Positions 1 through 19,320 of a stretch of DNA of 19,320 nt are shown in pieces. Every line of letters starts with the position of its first letter. Positions within the stretch are counted from its first letter, which is position 1. The position numbers were made by a program, and so were the translations under genes. Location: positions 1 to 19,320 of the IMG/VR virus record IMGVR_UViG_3300045988_032762; one strand, written 5' to 3'. Source of the stretch: a virus. Below the pieces are notes generated by a model, which was not told the DNA's origin, ran no database searches, and saw only the letters and a program-made list of their open reading frames with translations.

Positions 1-22
1 ATTGTTAATCATTTTATTTTTT
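1..22. repeat. Terminal 22-mer, an inverted copy of 184..205 (mirrored at 19299..19320 and 19116..19137)
   Basis: ATTGTTAATCATTTTATTTTTT at 1..22 is the exact reverse complement of AAAAAATAAAATGATTAACAAT at 184..205. That segment is the A-rich leader plus the first four codons of the ITR gene. Confidence 0.9.
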
Positions 23-66
23 TTTGTTCTGTGGCGTCTTTGTCGCTTTGTTGTGTTTCTTGTCTT

Positions 67-95
67 ATTATATTTTTTTCGCGCCAGTTTGTCAA
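67..95 (-). promoter_or_regulatory. Outward-facing consensus sigma-70/sigma-A promoter in the left ITR
   Basis: On the minus strand: TTGACA (90..95), a 17-nt spacer, then TATAAT (67..72). It points towards position 1, so the transcript would run off the end after about 60 nt. Confidence 0.6.
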
Positions 96-126
96 GTTTT
101 TTTATTTCCGGCGTGTCGTTTGTTTT

Positions 127-158
127 CGGGCGTGTCGTGTTTTTGTTTGTGTTATAGT
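127..158 (+). promoter_or_regulatory. ITR promoter P1 (extended -10 TGtTATAGT) for the 66-aa gene; mirror at 19163..19194 (-)
   Basis: TGTTATAGT at 150..158. The CGGGCGTGTCGT motif puts GCGTGT at the -35 position with a 17-nt spacer. Downstream come the RBS CAAGGGAAAGG and the ATG at 194. Confidence 0.55.
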
Positions 159-193
159 GTAGTTATCAGCTTCAAGGGAAAGGAAAAAATAAA

Positions 194-394
194 ATGATTA
201 ACAATAGCATCATCAAGGATTACGTCGAAGATTACATCATGAACAGCGGTCAGCAGCTCGACGATTTTGACCTTGACATGATTGTTGAGAATCTGCATCA
301 TGTGGCTGTGGTCAATAATATGACCATTGAGGATTATAACGATTGTGATTCGTTTCCGAATGATGATTTTATTGAAGCGTTCGAGAATGCGTGA
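194..394 (+). CDS. Hyper-acidic 66-aa protein encoded in the ITR (left copy); function unknown, candidate DNA mimic
   Basis: The ORF has an RBS, its own promoter and its own terminator. It has 11 Asp and 5 Glu against 1 Lys and 0 Arg. An identical copy lies at 18927..19127. Confidence 0.8.
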   Translation: MINNSIIKDYVEDYIMNSGQQLDDFDLDMIVENLHHVAVVNNMTIEDYNDCDSFPNDDFIEAFENA

Positions 395-407
395 TAGGTA
401 ATAGTAG

Positions 408-440
408 AAGCCTCTCGGTTAATAACTGGGAGGCTTTTTT
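408..440 (+). terminator. Intrinsic terminator after the ITR gene; mirror at 18881..18913 (-)
   Basis: AAGCCTC (408..414) pairs with GAGGCTT (430..436) and is followed by TTTT. Confidence 0.7.
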
Positions 441-454
441 ATGTTGTTTTGTTT

Positions 455-487
455 TCGGGCGTGTCGTTGTTTTGTTTATGCTATAAT
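455..487 (+). promoter_or_regulatory. ITR promoter P2 (extended -10 TGcTATAAT); mirror at 18834..18866 (-)
   Basis: TGCTATAAT at 479..487. The CGGGCGTGTCGT motif again puts GCGTGT 17 nt upstream. Next come the RBS CAAGGGAGG and the ATG at 520, where the ITR ends. Confidence 0.6.
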
Positions 488-519
488 GAAAAATATCGAC
501 TACAAGGGAGGTAAATAAA

Positions 520-762
520 ATGATGATTTCAAATATGACTTTCAAGGAAAAGAACGAACTGCTGACCACTTTGTGGGACGACCCGTCCGTGACGCTTCAT
601 GGCGTCAAGGACGGTGTTACGAGTTCGATTGATCGTGATCAGGTTGTTGGTGATTATGTCGTGGCTCTGTATGATTCGTATCAGTTTATATTGCCCTATG
701 AAACAGAAGATGTGCTTCTGTTTTCCGCTGAAGATATGGAGGCGTTCGCTCGGACGTGGTAA
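520..762 (+). CDS. Acidic 80-aa protein of unknown function, specific to the left arm and driven by ITR promoter P2
   Basis: The ORF uses the RBS and ATG supplied by the ITR. It has about 15 acidic and 5 basic residues. A strong hairpin terminator follows. Confidence 0.7.
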   Translation: MMISNMTFKEKNELLTTLWDDPSVTLHGVKDGVTSSIDRDQVVGDYVVALYDSYQFILPYETEDVLLFSAEDMEAFARTW

Positions 763-3067: not shown

Positions 3068-4282
3068 TTAGAATGCGGGTGGATTCGATTTACCGTCCCA
3101 CACAGTCAGCAGCGAGTATGCCTGATTGTATCGATTTGTGTATGGATGGAATGGATACGTGCCCAAAATATTGGTTTTGAGCTGCGCAAGATTCGATGCT
3201 TTCGGCACCTTGAGCGCATTGGCTGGTGACTGGTGGTATGCGGTAACCCACAAGATTTGCATTTTATCATCATCGTATTCCTGCGGGTAGCCCACGTAAT
3301 CCTCGGCAAACTGCTTGCGCTGACCCTCATGCGACTCGCTACGTGCCGCCCACATTTGGAATGCCGCTGCTTCCGTCGAGGTCAGCGGTCGGGTAAAATC
3401 ACCCCCCAATTCCATGAGTCCCGCGATCTCAGGAGCCGCACTTTTAAATGCGGCGTAGCCGGTTGGGTCAGCCTCACGCATTTTATTGAGCACTTGCAAG
3501 CGCCGTCCGAAGCTCCACTGCGCAATGCCGATACCTTGGAGATTGGCGGCTTCCACCGCGTCCCACCGTAGATTGGACTCTACCGTGCCGACAACGTAGA
3601 GCGCATACGGATTTTTGGCGTTGGTTGAGCTGGACGGGTGCCCTTGTCCTTGCGAGTCGGACGGTTGCCCCTGCGACGCTTTTTCCGAGAAATTATTGGC
3701 TATTGTTTTGTAAAAAATACGGGTGCGCGCCCCGCTGTTATCCGTCTCATGCAAGTATAGGTTGTCGCCCTGCCAGTGTATCCACGCTCCCCCTCGCGCG
3801 GTGTCGGGGTGCCCTTGGTTGTTGTCTCCGGTGGGATTGTCCACGTCCGGCCTAGACATGGTACGGGGGTGTAAGTAGCCTAACAGTCCGTCGATTGGGT
3901 ACCATTTGAGGGCGCTTGCGTCCGGGTTTTGTGTGATGACGTAGATTCTGCCATCTTTTACCCCATCATTGCCGGCGACTATGGCAACATGCGTATAGGG
4001 GGTGTACGTGCCGTATCCCCATATTGCCACGTCCCCAGCCACCGGCGTGTATCCGCTTGCGGTAATACGCTCGTACACTTGTTCGCACCGTGCGGATACG
4101 GGGTATGAGGTGTACAATCCCCCAGCATAGCCGGTAGGGGTGATACAGTCCTGAATGCTCATGCCGTACATGTCCATGCTGTATTTTGCCCATAAGTCCC
4201 AGCATTGCGCGCCATACGCGCCGTCCATGTCCCAAAAACGGTTTTTGGTCTGGTCAATCCATTGATTAAAAGTAATAGCCAT
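3068..4282 (-). CDS. Tail-associated peptidoglycan hydrolase (gp13 analogue): N-terminal CHAP plus C-terminal lysozyme/transglycosylase-like domain
   Basis: The N-terminus (DMDGAYGAQCWDLW...GDVAIW...HVAIV...QNPD...GYLHPRT) is paralogous to the endolysin CHAP domain. The linker is low-complexity and rich in Gly, Gln and Ser. The C-terminal part contains VESNLRWD...GIGIAQWS. It sits between the fibre and ATPase genes. Confidence 0.75.
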   Translation of the reverse strand: MAITFNQWIDQTKNRFWDMDGAYGAQCWDLWAKYSMDMYGMSIQDCITPTGYAGGLYTSYPVSARCEQVYERITASGYTPVAGDVAIWGYGTYTPYTHVAIVAGNDGVKDGRIYVITQNPDASALKWYPIDGLLGYLHPRTMSRPDVDNPTGDNNQGHPDTARGGAWIHWQGDNLYLHETDNSGARTRIFYKTIANNFSEKASQGQPSDSQGQGHPSSSTNAKNPYALYVVGTVESNLRWDAVEAANLQGIGIAQWSFGRRLQVLNKMREADPTGYAAFKSAAPEIAGLMELGGDFTRPLTSTEAAAFQMWAARSESHEGQRKQFAEDYVGYPQEYDDDKMQILWVTAYHQSPANALKVPKASNLAQLKTNILGTYPFHPYTNRYNQAYSLLTVWDGKSNPPAF

Positions 4283-13319: not shown

Positions 13320-14771
13320 TCATAGCATAACCAATGTACCGTAATCGTCCATGACTTGCACGCCATGCCGGAATTGCTCATACGGGATAGGTTGGGAGAA
13401 CATGCTTCCAGCCATGCAAACGTCAACTTCACCGTCATCCCTCCATCCTTGATATCGGTTCATGCCCAATATCGTGAGCTTTTCGTACTGTGCGGCGATT
13501 TTCCATTTGCCTAGCTCGGTAGGGTGGATTTCGCATGACTTCACCGGCTCCCAGCCTGACAATATGCACCCGTCCGTATTGGCATAAAGCAGTCGATCAG
13601 AGTTGGCATGGCAGACGCCCATAAGCTTACGACGCGCGTAGGCGTTGACCCATACGGGCACGGGCAGATAGTCGGTTTTCAGATTCGATTCCCCTCTCTG
13701 TGCGATATCCCAGTTCAAGGTGATACCGTCTTTTGACATGGGAAGCATGACGGCCCCTTTGGGCAGACTTGCCATTTTGCCTACGAGCGCGTTCATGATC
13801 AGTTTCGCCATTTGCCGTTTCTCGCCTGTCTCGCGTTGTTTCAGTTCCCCCCATTCGTCGATGAACGAGCGGAAAAACCCCTTGCTTTTCCGGAACCGCC
13901 ACCCCCGCACATACTTGTAAACGCTCACTTCGTAATTGTCATATAAAAGTTGCTGGTCAATATCGGTGAGCACTCTTGTAATATATCCCCTAGTGCTGGT
14001 AAGTCGATTGAGTTCATACACGCTACGATTGTCTAATAGAAAGGGGTATCCGTTTGGTTTGAGTTCGGCGCGGAACGTGAGTTCGTCGCAATGCAATGGC
14101 ATGTCATCATCCTGCTCATACTTGCCGTCATATGATTCAGGTAGCCCCCATGGGAGCCATTCATCCCGCAATATGCTCGGATACATGCTATTGCAGTCAA
14201 CGTCGATGGCCTTACCGTATGCCCCCTCTCTTGCAACCATAAATCCGCCGATATAGGCGTCATGCAGTGACTTTTTATCTTCGGGCTGCAATTGTGGGAA
14301 TTTGTCGTAAAGCCACTTCCACTCGCCGGATGCGAACGCTTCCATGCTCGCTCCACCGGCTGTGATCTTGCACAAGCCGCGCCGATCGTACTCGCGCAAA
14401 ATGTTGAGCAGTTGAGTATCGGTCATGGTGAGCTTGCAGTTTTCCCGCAAAAGATTCGAAATATCGAAAAACCGCGCGGAATTTTCGCGGTCGATACGCA
14501 CGGTAAAACTAAAAAATTTGCCCTTTTTGGACACTATCGCGTCCCAGCTCAGGTTGGCGTTATGCTCATTATGGGGGAGAGAGTGCACGACATGTGCGAT
14601 AAACGGGTCTAAAATATCGGGGTTGCTCACGTAGACGGTGAGTCTGCCGCCCGTCATGATGGACGCCAAAAGACGATTAGGCGCGGCAACGTCACGTAAT
14701 ACGGTGCCGTCCGTAAAACGGATAACGTTATCCATACACCATAATCCAACTCTATTATCACTCACCACCAT
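13320..14771 (-). CDS. Protein-primed family-B DNA polymerase (phi29 gp2-like), compact at 483 aa
   Basis: Long collinear similarity to phi29 DNA polymerase. Examples: ITAGGASMEAF vs MTAGSDSLKGF; DVDCNSMYP vs DVNSLYP; KLIMNALVGK vs KLMLNSLYGK; LYANTDG vs IYCDTDS; LGKWK vs LGYWA. Confidence 0.92.
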   Translation of the reverse strand: MVVSDNRVGLWCMDNVIRFTDGTVLRDVAAPNRLLASIMTGGRLTVYVSNPDILDPFIAHVVHSLPHNEHNANLSWDAIVSKKGKFFSFTVRIDRENSARFFDISNLLRENCKLTMTDTQLLNILREYDRRGLCKITAGGASMEAFASGEWKWLYDKFPQLQPEDKKSLHDAYIGGFMVAREGAYGKAIDVDCNSMYPSILRDEWLPWGLPESYDGKYEQDDDMPLHCDELTFRAELKPNGYPFLLDNRSVYELNRLTSTRGYITRVLTDIDQQLLYDNYEVSVYKYVRGWRFRKSKGFFRSFIDEWGELKQRETGEKRQMAKLIMNALVGKMASLPKGAVMLPMSKDGITLNWDIAQRGESNLKTDYLPVPVWVNAYARRKLMGVCHANSDRLLYANTDGCILSGWEPVKSCEIHPTELGKWKIAAQYEKLTILGMNRYQGWRDDGEVDVCMAGSMFSQPIPYEQFRHGVQVMDDYGTLVML

Positions 14772-14789: not shown

Positions 14790-15860
14790 TTATTGACCGC
14801 TACTTTCCAACGCGCCCGCTTCCGCTATCCACCGGTCGAACTGCCTTCGTGAACGCTGATAGCCCTCACTGTTGCCTCGGAAAACTGAGGCGAAACCGTG
14901 CCGAACGGGGTCATACACCGTCCAGTCGAACACAATACGGGGGGCGTCTGTCTGTTCGATAAACGCTCTCTTTTGCGCTGCGGATAGGCTGCGGAATCGT
15001 TTCAATCGTTTCGAACCTAGTGAGGTGGCCAAGATTTTTTCAAAAACCTCATAACGCCGGCGACTCATGTAGGACGGCCACTCGTGCTCACCGTACAGGT
15101 CTGTACTCTTTTTGCCCGTCCCCTGTCTTTTGGACGTTTTGCGTTTCTGTTCGGTGCGCAATCCCAAGATTTCGGCTGCGTCATGCATCTGCTCAAGCAG
15201 TTCCTTACGGTGACCGCTCTCCAATTGCGATCTTACAAAAGCTTCGTCACTCAGGACGTTTGCCATTTGCAGAAAATCAGTGAGTTTCGATGGGATGATC
15301 TGAGTGCGTCCGAAACCCTCGCCGGTAGTTCCGGTGATTTCGGCCATACGCTGATCGTACACGCTACGCTGTGGCATGGCCTGTTCGCGGTTCCATTCGT
15401 TGATTTTTCGCCGTGCCGCGTTGATTTTACGCTGCTGCTGCCGTAACAGTTTGCGCCGTTTCGCGACGGGTTCCGCCTGAATCTGCGCGTCCGATATGGG
15501 CGTGCGTTGGGCAAACATAATGTCTTTTTTCGTCGGCTTTTCCACGGCGGTGGCATGATATGTGGTTGCTTTCGCTTCCGCTATGGCCTGTTTCTTCTGC
15601 CGTTCCCATTCTTTGCCCAATGTTTTCGCGATATTGACCAATTGCTTGTCGGCGGTTTTGGCGAGATTCGAGTGAGAATACGAGCCGAGTTTGCTAATGT
15701 TACGGGCGGCGCGTGCTTCCGCTGCCTGTCTTGCCTTGACGTGCTTGCGTGCCTTGCTGTCCGCCTTGATGGCTACCGTGCCGATGCCGGTATTGTGGGC
15801 GCGAGTGGTGTAGTGCTGACTTGCGACTGCTCGGGGTGATTTTCTTTGCTTGCGTGACAT
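14790..15860 (-). CDS. Candidate terminal (priming) protein
   Basis: It lies immediately upstream of the polymerase gene, as phi29 gene 3 does. It is 356 aa and strongly basic (rich in K, R, Q and A). I could see no direct similarity to phi29 TP; the call is positional. Confidence 0.5.
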   Translation of the reverse strand: MSRKQRKSPRAVASQHYTTRAHNTGIGTVAIKADSKARKHVKARQAAEARAARNISKLGSYSHSNLAKTADKQLVNIAKTLGKEWERQKKQAIAEAKATTYHATAVEKPTKKDIMFAQRTPISDAQIQAEPVAKRRKLLRQQQRKINAARRKINEWNREQAMPQRSVYDQRMAEITGTTGEGFGRTQIIPSKLTDFLQMANVLSDEAFVRSQLESGHRKELLEQMHDAAEILGLRTEQKRKTSKRQGTGKKSTDLYGEHEWPSYMSRRRYEVFEKILATSLGSKRLKRFRSLSAAQKRAFIEQTDAPRIVFDWTVYDPVRHGFASVFRGNSEGYQRSRRQFDRWIAEAGALESSGQ

Positions 15861-16757: not shown

Positions 16758-17276
16758 TTACCTCCCCTGTAGTAAGATTTTTTGCAATTCAACATCATTA
16801 TAACGTGTCGTATCCAGTCTGTCAAAATTTTTAAACACAGCGATAATCAGATTTTGAGCTTGTGGACTGTTAAAGACCGTGCAGCAATCATATGACGTGC
16901 ATCCTTTGACGGCGCAGACGGCGCACCATGCAATCAGATTAGGCGGGTTGATAGTACCGTCCAAATATTCCACATCATACGTGCTGGACAGGGCGGCGGA
17001 AAAACCGTCTGATATGGTCATGCTCCCGCAAATCTGCGATACGACAATTATTGCTTGCGTAAACCATGTGCTAACCCCGTCGCGCCACAATTCACACAAC
17101 ATAGCGACTGCACGGCAGCATGTCTCAAAATCACCATACCCCTTATCATACCGTTTCAAATTCAGGTCACGTTTCCGGCCTTCCGTAGCCTTGACAATAC
17201 GTGGCGATTCCATGATCGCATCATCAAACCGGCGCATACGATAAATTGGCATCCTATCATTGCCGCGGTTAAACAT
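16758..17276 (-). CDS. Cys-rich protein of unknown function (172 aa from the revised start)
   Basis: The track start (17318) has no RBS. The ATG at 17276 has GAAAGG 7 nt upstream and overlaps the stop of the upstream 58-aa ORF (ATGTTTAA). Confidence 0.65.
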   Translation of the reverse strand: MFNRGNDRMPIYRMRRFDDAIMESPRIVKATEGRKRDLNLKRYDKGYGDFETCCRAVAMLCELWRDGVSTWFTQAIIVVSQICGSMTISDGFSAALSSTYDVEYLDGTINPPNLIAWCAVCAVKGCTSYDCCTVFNSPQAQNLIIAVFKNFDRLDTTRYNDVELQKILLQGR

Positions 17277-17445
17277 AATAGCGCCTTTCGACCCTAAAAT
17301 ATGCAATATTACGTACATGTGTGGGTACAGCCGCCCACTTGCGAATCAGCTCAGCGGCCTTATCGTATGACATGGCATACCCCACTTCAATAGGGGGTTT
17401 ATCGCCATGCCTCAAATATGCAAGTGCAACAAAAGTCTCATACAT
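17269..17445 (-). CDS. Small early ORF (58 aa), below the ORF-track cutoff
   Basis: Hand translation: MYETFVALAYLRHGDKPPIEVGYAMSYDKAAELIRKWAAVPTHVRNIAYFRVERRYYV. It fills the gap between neighbouring genes with coupled stop/start junctions. Confidence 0.5.
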   Translation of the reverse strand: MYETFVALAYLRHGDKPPIEVGYAMSYDKAAELIRKWAAVPTHVRNIAYFRVERRYYV

Positions 17446-18558: not shown

Positions 18559-18801
18559 TCAGTGAATCAAGGCGTCGGATACCGCTTCCGCGATAGTATC
18601 CCCAGTTCCCAAGACAACGGCAGGGCTGCAATAATCAGCGTAAACGGCATAAAACACATCAACCGCGTCCACCTTACATCCATCTTCGGTAGTGCGATAG
18701 TATGGCATCTCAACCCTCTTGACGCAAGCGCGCGCCATCAATTCCCGCACACTCTCGATACTAACGACAGCTTCCTTTGCGATTTGCTTATAATTTTCCA
18801 T
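18559..18801 (-). CDS. 80-aa first gene of the right-arm early operon; its promoter, RBS and ATG come from the ITR
   Basis: The ATG at 18801..18799 is the last triplet of the right ITR. C-terminal GTGDTIAEAVSDAL loosely resembles small alpha/beta HicB-like folds. Confidence 0.7.
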   Translation of the reverse strand: MENYKQIAKEAVVSIESVRELMARACVKRVEMPYYRTTEDGCKVDAVDVFYAVYADYCSPAVVLGTGDTIAEAVSDALIH

Positions 18802-18926
18802 TTTATTTACCTCCCTTGTAGTCGATATTTTTCATTATAGCATAAACAAAACAACGACACGCCCGAAAACAAAACAACATAAAAAAGCCTCCCAGTTATT
18901 AACCGAGAGGCTTCTACTATTACCTA

Positions 18927-19127
18927 TCACGCATTCTCGAACGCTTCAATAAAATCATCATTCGGAAACGAATCACAATCGTTATAATCCTCAATGGTCA
19001 TATTATTGACCACAGCCACATGATGCAGATTCTCAACAATCATGTCAAGGTCAAAATCGTCGAGCTGCTGACCGCTGTTCATGATGTAATCTTCGACGTA
19101 ATCCTTGATGATGCTATTGTTAATCAT
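18927..19127 (-). CDS. Hyper-acidic 66-aa ITR protein (right copy, identical to 194..394)
   Basis: The translation in the ORF track is identical, and it lies inside the perfect ITR. Confidence 0.8.
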   Translation of the reverse strand: MINNSIIKDYVEDYIMNSGQQLDDFDLDMIVENLHHVAVVNNMTIEDYNDCDSFPNDDFIEAFENA

Positions 19128-19225
19128 TTTATTTTTTCCTTTCCCTTGAAGCTGATAACTACACTATAACACAAACAAAAACACGACACGCCCGAAAACA
19201 AACGACACGCCGGAAATAAAAAAAC

Positions 19226-19254
19226 TTGACAAACTGGCGCGAAAAAAATATAAT
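19226..19254 (+). promoter_or_regulatory. Outward-facing consensus promoter in the right ITR (mirror of 67..95)
   Basis: TTGACA at 19226..19231, a 17-nt spacer, TATAAT at 19249..19254. It points towards the right terminus. Confidence 0.6.
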
Positions 19255-19320
19255 AAGACAAGAAACACAACAAAGCGACAAAGACGCCACAGAACAAAAA
19301 AAAATAAAATGATTAACAAT

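Follow-up and report, generated by a model that had tools for sequence, protein, structure and literature searches.

The window, a stretch of 19,320 nucleotides, is the complete linear genome (19.3 kb) of a phi29-like podophage of Bifidobacterium, 86% identical at the DNA level to the cultured Bifidobacterium phage BP1. It is bounded by inverted terminal repeats and encodes a capsid, connector, tail and packaging ATPase of phi29 type. [quoted passage not shown] Pfam and PHROGs scans of 26 of the larger ORFs, which include every ORF of at least 100 aa taken as a gene, found no second polymerase or nuclease, and the 483-aa protein is the only DNA polymerase found in the genome.

The 356-aa ORF is named as the putative terminal protein for its place directly upstream of the polymerase gene, where Actinomyces phage Av-1 has its annotated terminal protein. 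It shares 27% identity with the corresponding upstream ORF of BadAztec1 (E 5e-15). BLASTP against the Av-1 terminal protein gave no significant match (E 0.084), and no similarity to PDB entries was found by phmmer or by a four-sequence profile.

Table 1. Features of the 19,320-nucleotide window; residue numbers are those of the 483-aa polymerase.
Feature	Positions	Strand	Basis
Left inverted terminal repeat	1..522	.	arms 100% complementary
Polymerase ORF, 483 aa	13320..14771	minus	ORF list and translation
KxY motif, here NRY, residues 438-440	13452..13460	minus	alignments
Motif C, YANTDG, residues 396-401	13569..13586	minus	alignments
Motif B, KLIMNALVGKM, residues 323-333	13773..13805	minus	alignments
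Motif A, DVDCNSMYP, residues 190-198	14178..14204	minus	alignments
Vestigial exonuclease-fold domain, residues 1-126 (phi29: ~190 residues)	14394..14771	minus	alignments, domain model
LTMTD, residues 114-118, possible ExoIII (Y-x3-D) remnant, Tyr lost	14418..14432	minus	hhalign gap
SNPDILDPFI, residues 49-58, ExoII position (phi29 HNLKFDGAFI)	14598..14627	minus	hhalign
CMDNV, residues 12-16, loop after first beta-strand, only candidate ExoI remnant	14724..14738	minus	translation
Putative terminal protein (primer), 356 aa, directly upstream of polymerase gene	14790..15860	minus	position only
phi29-type single-stranded DNA-binding protein, 144 aa	15940..16374	minus	PF17427 Phi29_Phage_SSB E 2.7e-18; PHROG 6243
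Right inverted terminal repeat, 522 bp	18799..19320	.	100% complementary to 1-522

An earlier note, written from the letters of the sequence, had described the polymerase as collinear with that of phi29 but about 90 aa shorter, and had proposed a profile alignment, a structure prediction and a comparison with orthologues. The PF03175 profile (Pfam DNA_pol_B_2) matched the protein with 93.1 bits against a cut-off of 25.8, and PHROG 1907 ('DNA polymerase') matched it with an E-value of 1.7e-40. Collinearity was borne out by phmmer against phi29 polymerase (PDB 1xhx, E 7.9e-40), which placed residues 127-439 on phi29 179-499, and by profile-profile alignment in hhalign, which aligned residues 1-483 with phi29 1-567 at a probability of 100%. 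The AlphaFold (AF2) model had a pLDDT of 90.4, and Foldseek superposed the whole of it on the phi29 structures 1xhx/2pyj with a TMq of 0.83-0.85. The deficit relative to phi29 amounts to 92 aa, of which ~52 fall in the N-terminal domain, ~32 in the C-terminal palm/thumb region and ~8 between them; the statement that most of the missing residues lie in the exonuclease half was therefore roughly right (57%). The in-frame TAA that the note had placed seven codons upstream of the ATG is present and is also the stop codon of the preceding gene, with a Shine-Dalgarno-like AAGGGAAG located between the two.

Within the polymerase domain the alignment runs unbroken through phi29 TPR1 (about 261-358) and TPR2 (about 394-427), and the model has a beta-hairpin at residues 340-358. 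The catalytic D192 and D400, together with K323, N327, Y197, YxGG, R380, TPR1, TPR2 and the thumb, are all intact. These comparisons place the protein among the protein-primed family B polymerases and show its polymerase core to be intact.

Modelled alone, residues 1-126 reached a pLDDT of 89.5, and a Foldseek search of the PDB with this model returned phi29 polymerase as the sole match (E 4e-5, TMq 0.62). Its best matches in the BFVD were the N-terminal parts of protein-primed polymerases. The predicted fold still matches that of the phi29 exonuclease domain, and the TMq of the whole protein exceeds the 0.74 attainable by the polymerase domain alone. Together these results show that the N-terminal domain derives, in shortened form, from the 3'-5' exonuclease domain of phi29. 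No equivalents of D12/E14 (ExoI), D66 (ExoII), K143 or Y165/D169 (ExoIII) were found in it by alignment. In hhalign a 16-residue gap lies over phi29 beta-1/ExoI, and a deletion of ~35 residues covers phi29 ~137-171, the segment holding K143, Y148, Y165 and D169, of which K143 is the family B Kx2h lysine. The first strand (residues 6-11) was favoured by hhalign as the counterpart of beta-2, and the Foldseek domain alignments, mostly of 164 columns, are in keeping with this. As the earlier note had observed, there is no Glu in the first ~65 residues; the first in the translation is residue 69, so a D-x-E motif near the N-terminus is impossible and ExoI is absent, as had been claimed. The alignments show that no metal-binding carboxylate is matched by an acidic residue, and that the catalytic Tyr and Lys are gone.

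All of the motif strings quoted by the earlier note (CMDNV, SNPDILDPFI, LTMTD, KLIMNALVGKM, YANTDG and NRY) lie where it had put them. CMDNV has a single Asp (D14) and no Glu; D14 is kept in 111/112 close homologues but is not conserved across the clade of compact polymerases described below. At ExoII, degenerate as claimed, the residue opposite phi29 D66 is I53 (by hhalign) or L54, flanked by D52 and D55. These two are kept in 75/112 and 97/112 close homologues respectively, and the column is non-acidic in the wider clade. For ExoIII the loss of the Tyr stood, whilst the equivalence of LTMTD to the phi29 Y-x3-D is no more than plausible, since the profile alignment sets LTMTD beside the 35-residue deletion; at best, L114 takes the place of the Tyr and D118 that of the Asp. 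D118, which in the model caps the N-terminal end of helix 118-130, is kept in 111/112 close homologues, but not in the wider clade. In an alignment of 27 compact-clade sequences, the sole acidic column of the N-terminal 140 residues with at least 60% conservation was D21, in a beta-turn, and the ExoI D-x-E position was missing or non-acidic in 27/27. The clade thus conserves no acidic column fit to act as a metal ligand.

We sampled 150 relatives out of about 1,600 found. The loss of the exonuclease motifs is not a chance pattern. In an alignment of relatives, D12, E14, D66 and D169 were present in 51/52 metagenomic sequences of 540-691 aa (the exception being P0142), and phages Av-1 and Reje also carry all four; T15, H61, N62, F65, K143 and Y165 were retained in nearly all relatives of this length. 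In contrast, the canonical exonuclease residues were absent in every aligned compact relative (464-496 aa). The compact form makes up one monophyletic clade, with 19 clusters at 50% identity; the alignment of cluster representatives has 145 sequences, 126 of them other polymerases. The clade includes direct 'DNA polymerase' orthologues from the cultured Bifidobacterium phages BP1 (89% protein identity), BD811P1-3 (76-77%) and BadAztec/BadAargau (33%), which are equally compact (469-483 aa) and have likewise lost the exonuclease motifs; the BadAztec enzyme differs from the one studied here in having DTDS in motif C and R in KxY. Set beside these phages, the present one is simply another isolate or metagenomic genome. 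The papers that we found on these phages make no comment on the missing site. The claim of a compact phi29-family polymerase lacking a functional ExoI/II/III site is thus supported by the profile alignment, the clade alignment and the predicted fold.

The earlier note had also called the polymerase motifs atypical, and the protein does depart from the full consensus of motifs B (Kx3NSxYG), C (YxDTDS) and KxY. In motif A (consensus Dx2SLYP), D192 corresponds to the catalytic phi29 D249 and is invariant in another alignment as well as in all 145 representatives, and Y197 corresponds to the steric-gate residue Y254. The positions of D249, D458, K383, G391 and G228 are constant in 145/145, that of R438 in 142/145 and that of N387 in 139/145. 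Motif B keeps K323 (K383) and N327 (N387), with S388 replaced by A328 and Y390 by V330. The second of these changes is indeed unusual, as Tyr occupies the position in 107/126 other polymerases but in 0/19 compact representatives; the first is ordinary in this alignment, contrary to the note, as the other polymerases have S in 70, N in 29 and A in 15. Motif C has N398 in place of the first Asp (phi29 D456), keeps the catalytic second Asp (D458) as D400 and has Gly for Ser. The first position is Asp in 126/126 other polymerases and Asn in 9/19 compact representatives; DTD is kept in half of the compact clade. In KxY, N438 stands where phi29 has K498, and Y440 preserves Y500; the Lys is present in 126/126 other polymerases and 0/19 compact ones. 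Among 112 close homologues of 483 aa, N398, A328 and N438 were each found in 112/112 and V330 in 110/112. Judged from these alignments, three replacements are fixed and clade-specific: Asn for the first Asp of motif C, Val for Tyr390 and Asn for Lys498.

The dN/dS ratio was 0.074-0.11 for the N-terminal domain and 0.077 for the polymerase domain; the vestigial domain is under purifying selection despite its lost motifs. Considering sequence and predicted structure together, we think it likely that the protein is an active replicase without proofreading, which is overall the best explanation. The phage would then probably replicate without error correction, because its proofreading domain is a shell lacking catalytic residues. 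Viable cultured phages (BP1, BD811P1-3 and BadAztec) carry the compact polymerase. Initiation would take place on a terminal protein, probably the 356-aa upstream product, at the 522-bp terminal repeats, and the whole genome would be copied processively with strand displacement, assisted by the phi29-type SSB. Misincorporated nucleotides would not be excised by the compact enzyme, and fidelity would come from nucleotide selection alone, which may be tolerable for a 19-kb genome. Purifying selection may have preserved the vestigial domain for a structural role; the exonuclease domain of phi29 polymerase contributes to the wall of the template tunnel that serves strand displacement. The Tyr390 to Val, Lys498 to Asn and motif C Asp to Asn changes may be adaptations or relaxations of the polymerase site in a setting where no exonuclease site is left to share the primer terminus.

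A further step, which we put forward tentatively and hold to be rather doubtful, is that this clade of gut Bifidobacterium phages uses an intrinsically low-fidelity replicase, combining the lack of proofreading with the loss of the motif B Tyr, the KxY Lys and the first Asp of motif C. If this were true, the mutation rate per genome copy could lie tens to thousands of times above the norm for microbes with double-stranded DNA. In phi29 polymerase, the Y390S mutation lowers the discrimination factor against wrong nucleotides, to 3x10^2 (PMC1976434).

Alternatively, the N-terminal domain could be a working non-canonical exonuclease with reduced or shifted ligands (D14, D52/D55 and D118), perhaps using a different metal. 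In the closest relatives, at 75-92% identity, D14, D55 and D118 persist, and a hand alignment puts them no more than one residue from the former ExoI, ExoII and ExoIII positions, so weak or metal-dependent residual activity is conceivable, and the strong purifying selection on the domain would fit this too. However, not one of the three Asp positions is acidic throughout the compact clade, which is monophyletic, and in part of this clade (e.g. BadAztec1) the protein begins ~18 residues further on, with no first strand at all. Tyr165, Lys143, Thr15, Asn62 and Phe65 are lost or not conserved, and Foldseek with the domain model matched no other DEDD nuclease in the PDB (WRN exonuclease, E 1.7, TMq 0.25). 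In phi29 the substitution of any single one of the four carboxylates reportedly lowers exonuclease activity by orders of magnitude. We therefore regard a working exonuclease of this kind as unlikely.

Somewhat less probable again is proofreading in trans, by another phage protein or a host exonuclease, which would leave overall fidelity normal. A novel exonuclease of this sort could be encoded by the small early ORFs, as these have no detectable homology. A 186-aa ORF (16758-17318, minus strand) was considered as a candidate for its GDFET, SDGF and YND, which resemble ExoI, ExoII and ExoIII, and was rejected: all three are lost in the BadAztec1 homologue, and hhalign against the polymerase profile gave a probability of 0.2%. 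No exonuclease-family match was found among the scanned ORFs, nor any recorded exonuclease domain on the contigs of relatives, one of which (L008) has the same gene order. A processive polymerase that encloses its DNA also leaves an external nuclease little access.

It is very improbable that the protein is a catalytically dead relic and that the phage DNA is copied by the host replisome. The replacement of the first Asp of motif C, the motif B Tyr and the KxY Lys could be read in this way, and for archaeal PolB2, whose motif C is changed in a similar way, inactivity had long been predicted; however, archaeal Dpo2 proved active in vivo (PMC7390963). Both of the carboxylates named as catalytic in phi29, Asp249 and Asp458 (PMC4974454), are invariant here, and K383, N387, Y254, YxGG and R438 were also counted as such (with the few exceptions given above for N387 and R438). 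The low dN/dS of the polymerase domain and the retention of DTD by half of the compact clade likewise speak against a relic, as does the layout of a linear genome with terminal repeats and a phi29-type SSB, which needs a protein-primed polymerase. Finally, public start annotations do differ (471 aa for BP1, 445 aa for BD811P2), but the idea that a wrong start codon, frameshift or assembly error hides a normal exonuclease domain is barely credible given the TAA at the end of the upstream gene, more than 110 independent metagenomic homologues of exactly 483 aa, an architecture common to three cultured phage lineages, deletions that are internal as well as terminal, and residues 1-12 that are conserved at the protein level and form a strand in the model.

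The polymerase shares the DNA_pol_B_2 family with phi29 polymerase and the other characterised protein-primed phage enzymes (Nf, GA-1, Cp-1, PRD1 and Bam35). It resembles the phi29 type in fold, TPR1, TPR2, thumb and the catalytic Asp of motifs A and C, and the genome does so in the order of its SSB, putative terminal protein and polymerase genes, its linear form with terminal repeats, and its virion and packaging genes. It differs in being 92 aa shorter than phi29 polymerase, with a 126-residue exonuclease domain devoid of D12, E14, D66, Y165, D169 and K143, and in having NTDG in motif C, Val for Tyr390 in motif B and NRY as KxY; the terminal repeats are 522 bp here as against 6 bp in phi29. 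To our knowledge, and as far as we searched, all characterised protein-primed phage polymerases carry an active proofreading exonuclease. Our search of the open-access literature brought up no paper reporting that a phi29-like phage polymerase, of this clade or any other, has lost its exonuclease site.

Archaeal PolB2/Sulfolobus Dpo2 combines the two changes seen here, being a family B enzyme without a recognisable proofreading domain, with the first Asp of motif C substituted, and active in vivo (PMC7390963). Dpo2, however, belongs to another PolB branch, is RNA- or DNA-primed, and is induced by damage for translesion synthesis, alongside a replicase that does proofread, rather than being the sole genome replicase; it has also lost the exonuclease domain, whereas the compact phage enzyme keeps the shell. 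Comparable exonuclease or motif C losses in family B are seen in eukaryotic Pol alpha, Pol zeta and the PolB_SITDG group: Pol zeta keeps an exonuclease-fold domain without its catalytic residues, and PolB_SITDG has the first Asp of motif C replaced (PMC7544198). All of these are multi-subunit enzymes of cells that extend nucleic-acid primers, and within PolB they are not related to the protein-primed group. Closer in type is the engineered D12A/D66A phi29 polymerase used experimentally (PMC1976434), which also lacks proofreading but is a point mutant made in the laboratory, its domain being of full size. Compared with such engineered mutants, the natural compact enzyme has had evolutionary time to compensate. 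Exonuclease-minus phi29 mutants are said to lose part of their strand-displacement capacity.

As phi29 polymerase is the textbook small high-fidelity replicase, a natural monophyletic clade in which the exonuclease site appears dismantled, yet the domain is kept as a shell, bears on several questions. These are the fidelity that a double-stranded DNA genome of 19 kb demands, the structural part played by the exonuclease domain in strand displacement and terminal-protein binding, and which residues (Tyr390, Lys498 and the first Asp of motif C) are linked to the exchange of the primer end between sites. Engineered exonuclease-minus phi29 enzymes serve sequencing and amplification methods, and a compact natural enzyme adapted to an absent exonuclease site would be a candidate starting point for these. 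Mutation rates and enzyme properties are directly measurable, because phages BP1 and BD811P1-3 are in culture.

Alignments also indicate that the same motifs have been degraded independently in other phi29-like lineages, so giving up proofreading may, on the tentative reading above, be a course taken repeatedly by tailed phages of very small size. Over all lineages, Tyr390 was non-aromatic in 26/34 exonuclease-degenerate and 10/105 canonical sequences (Fisher p = 2e-13), a statistic inflated by shared ancestry since 19 of the sequences form one clade. Outside the compact clade the figures were about 7/15 degenerate against 10/105 canonical, which does no more than suggest an association between the loss of Tyr390 and that of the exonuclease motifs.

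The minus-strand polymerase of 483 aa gave a Pfam DNA_pol_B_2 (PF03175 family) match of 93.1 bits (cut-off 25.8) over residues 137–398 only. It also matched PHROG 1907 'DNA polymerase', and a PDB search returned phi29 polymerase (E = 7.9e-40), with residues 127–439 corresponding to phi29 179–499. The gene is already known from cultured phages, where it is simply annotated 'DNA polymerase'.

The polymerase and 21 compact relatives were aligned with those of Av-1 and Reje, a phi29 record (the engineered D12A variant) and 53 metagenomic phi29-like polymerases of 540–691 aa. D12 and E14 (ExoI), D66 (ExoII) and D169 (ExoIII), whose roles in the phi29 exonuclease are established together with that of Y165 (PMC4974454), were present in Av-1, Reje and 51/52 canonical-looking metagenomic polymerases, the exception being P0142, which is itself degenerate. 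T15, H61, N62, F65, K143 and Y165 were also kept in nearly all canonical polymerases of this alignment. Every one of these residues was missing from all polymerases of 464–496 aa (the window phage, BP1, BD811P2, BadAztec1 and the metagenomic P0121–P0127), and a second alignment, of 50%-identity cluster representatives from an exhaustive HMMER search, had the same outcome for 19 compact representatives. Profile-profile alignment of the compact and long clades (probability 100%) placed a 16-residue gap over phi29 beta-1, the site of ExoI, set I53 opposite D66, and left a gap of ~35 residues over phi29 137–171, which holds K143, Y148, Y165 and D169. The earlier note had described ExoI as absent, with no early Glu, and the ExoII Asp as shifted by one position; the loss of ExoI held, no Glu occurring before residue 69, and was common to the whole compact clade. 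D21, in a beta-turn, was the sole acidic column conserved at ≥60% in the first 140 residues of the clade, and BadAztec-type members start ~18 residues later, lacking the first strand altogether.

A non-canonical exonuclease might be built from D14, D55 and D118, but these were conserved only among the closest relatives, and we consider it unlikely. Proofreading supplied in trans is quite improbable: a 186-aa early ORF carries an ExoI-like 'GDFET', but conservation and profile comparison marked this as a chance match and the candidate was rejected.

An AlphaFold2 model of the polymerase (97-sequence alignment; pLDDT 90.4, pTM 0.87) matched phi29 polymerase in Foldseek with a TMq of 0.83–0.85, the next best matches being archaeal PolBs at ~0.4. 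As the polymerase domain comprises only 74% of residues, the N-terminal domain must therefore superpose on phi29 too. Modelled alone (pLDDT 89.5), residues 1–135 matched only phi29 polymerase in the PDB (E = 4e-5, TMq 0.62), with no other DEDD nuclease at significance, and their best matches in a viral structure library were the N-terminal parts of the protein-primed polymerases of GA-1, SOCP and BadAztec1. Against BP1, dN/dS was 0.074 for residues 1–126 and 0.077 for the rest (N-terminal value against BD811P2, 0.10). Model and substitution rates indicate that the N-terminal domain is a shell and not debris, which selection preserves, probably for a role other than catalysis.

In the polymerase site, D192, D400, K323, N327, Y197, Y173-x-G175-G176 and R380 corresponded to phi29 D249, D458, K383, N387, Y254, YxGG and R438, Asp249 and Asp458 being the catalytic carboxylates of phi29 (PMC4974454). 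D249, D458, K383, G228 and G391 were invariant in 145/145 aligned sequences, and other core positions nearly so. Three changes in this alignment were specific to the compact clade. Lys498 of KxY was kept in 126/126 other polymerases and 0/19 compact ones (Asn in the window); Asp456, the first Asp of motif C, was Asp in 126/126 others and Asn in 9/19 (Asn in the window); Tyr390 of motif B was Tyr in 107/126 and 0/19 (Val in the window). Among close homologues N398, A328 and N438 were fixed (112/112), as was V330 in 110/112. All three changes had been singled out earlier as atypical together with Ser388 to Ala, which has to be set aside, Ala being common there among ordinary relatives. Base discrimination drops to 3x10^2 in the phi29 Y390S mutant, which no longer discriminates against dA opposite 8-oxoG (PMC1976434). 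Archaeal PolB2/Dpo2 combines a substituted first motif C Asp with absence of proofreading, yet is active in vivo (PMC7390963), and polymerases of the PolB_SITDG group also carry another residue in place of this Asp (PMC7544198). That the window polymerase is dead is very improbable, as its catalytic residues are invariant, purifying selection is strong and the genome type argues against it.

The TAA stop of the upstream gene lies in frame seven codons 5' of the polymerase ATG, with AAGGGAAG between them; because of this stop the N-terminus cannot be extended upstream, in agreement with the earlier note. The deposited polymerases of BP1 (471 aa) and BD811P2 (445 aa) start at internal Met codons. 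Since translation from an upstream start (ATG or GTG) yields 483 aa in each of the three phages, with the sequence conserved, both public records probably truncate the N-terminus. An annotation or assembly artefact is scarcely credible, given three cultured lineages and the more than 110 independent homologues that share the same length.

The enzyme is most likely an active, protein-primed, processive replicase without proofreading, its vestigial N-terminal domain probably being retained as a structural part. The observation in the earlier note is confirmed and its interpretation as a proofreading-deficient replicase is supported, the loss of activity being predicted from sequence and model. 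The phi29 exonuclease domain contributes to the template tunnel on which strand displacement depends (PMC4974454), and by analogy the vestigial domain may do so here. At the phi29 insertion discrimination of 1e4–1e6 (PMC4974454), we estimate that ~0.02–2 errors would arise per copy of the 19.3-kb genome.

The 19 compact representatives grouped as one clade, to the exclusion of all others, in a neighbour-joining tree built from the polymerase domain; every cultured member infects Bifidobacterium. Exonuclease motifs were also degraded in several unrelated full-length (510–590 aa) phi29-like lineages, including the metagenomic polymerases P0142 (VDFNEN and HDLSFNGAF), P0314 (IDFQT and HDLKFFARF), P0272 (YFLTT), P0283, P0215, P0265, P0293 and others; this points to several losses of the proofreading site. 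The full D-E-D-D set was missing in 34/139 usable representatives. The degraded full-length polymerases lie on phi29-like contigs that carry no second polymerase; that of P0142 is 16.2 kb long, and P0126, of the compact clade, was likewise the sole polymerase on its phi29-like contig. We found no description of exonuclease-site loss in these polymerases in the open-access literature, and the clade-wide loss with co-varying polymerase-site changes appears undescribed so far.

The window comprises an entire linear phage genome, bounded by perfect inverted terminal repeats of 522 bp (6 bp in phi29). It shared 85.6% DNA identity over 79% of its length with BP1, a cultured podovirus of B. pseudocatenulatum, and ~76% with the B. 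dentium phages BD811P1-3. At one end, the public BP1 record is missing the corresponding ~45 outermost bases, and at the opposite end it has no repeat; its termini thus seem to be incomplete. A 66-aa ORF occurs twice because each repeat contains it. The 15-mer TTTCSGGCGTGTCGT occurs three times per repeat (six matches in the window, 0.01 expected), two copies in each having TATAGTG or TATAATG ~20 nt downstream; these sites may act as early promoters or be bound by an origin protein. A perfect inverted copy of the terminal 22 nt, ATTGTTAATCATTTTATTTTTT, lies 161 nt inward, and the extreme end showed no simple nucleotide reiteration like that used by phi29 for sliding-back. This arrangement could belong to a genuine origin; alternatively, it may indicate that the contig does not finish at the true terminus.

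Coordinates of the features discussed (in the window unless a contig is named)
Feature	Position	Strand	Description
DNA polymerase	13320-14771	minus	483 aa; ORF list and translation
Putative terminal protein	14790-15860	minus	356 aa; directly upstream of polymerase gene; assigned by synteny only
Early ORF	16758-17318	minus	186 aa
Lysin	813-1490	minus	225 aa
Lysin	3068-4282	minus	404 aa
Terminal repeats	1-522; 18799-19320		522 bp
Repeat ORF	194-394	plus	66 aa
Repeat ORF, mirrored	18927-19127	minus	66 aa
15-mer	105-119; 124-138; 453-467		mirror copies within 18854-19216
Terminal 22 nt and inverted copy	1-22; 184-205		mirror 19116-19137; 19299-19320
BP1 polymerase gene	L001 4849-6264		as deposited
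BD811P2 polymerase gene	L006 1615-2952		as deposited
P0142 polymerase gene	L009 4745-6376		metagenomic contig

Gene content was phi29-type by Pfam and PHROG, with a phi29-type SSB (PF17427), major head protein, tail protein, connector, lower collar, packaging ATPase, a holin and two lysins. The lysin genes are separate and their products have related N-terminal CHAP/amidase-type domains; the 404-aa lysin may be a virion-associated hydrolase, not a second endolysin. The putative terminal protein gene occupies the place of the annotated terminal protein in Actinomyces phage Av-1 and is conserved with its BadAztec1 counterpart (27% identity, E = 5e-15); sequence comparisons detected no similarity to the known terminal proteins of phi29 and Av-1. 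Lys, Arg and Gln are highly abundant in the putative terminal protein, and its orthologues are annotated as hypothetical proteins in public records. The 186-aa early ORF has a conserved cysteine pattern (C97, C135, C140 and C146) common to BP1 and BadAztec1.
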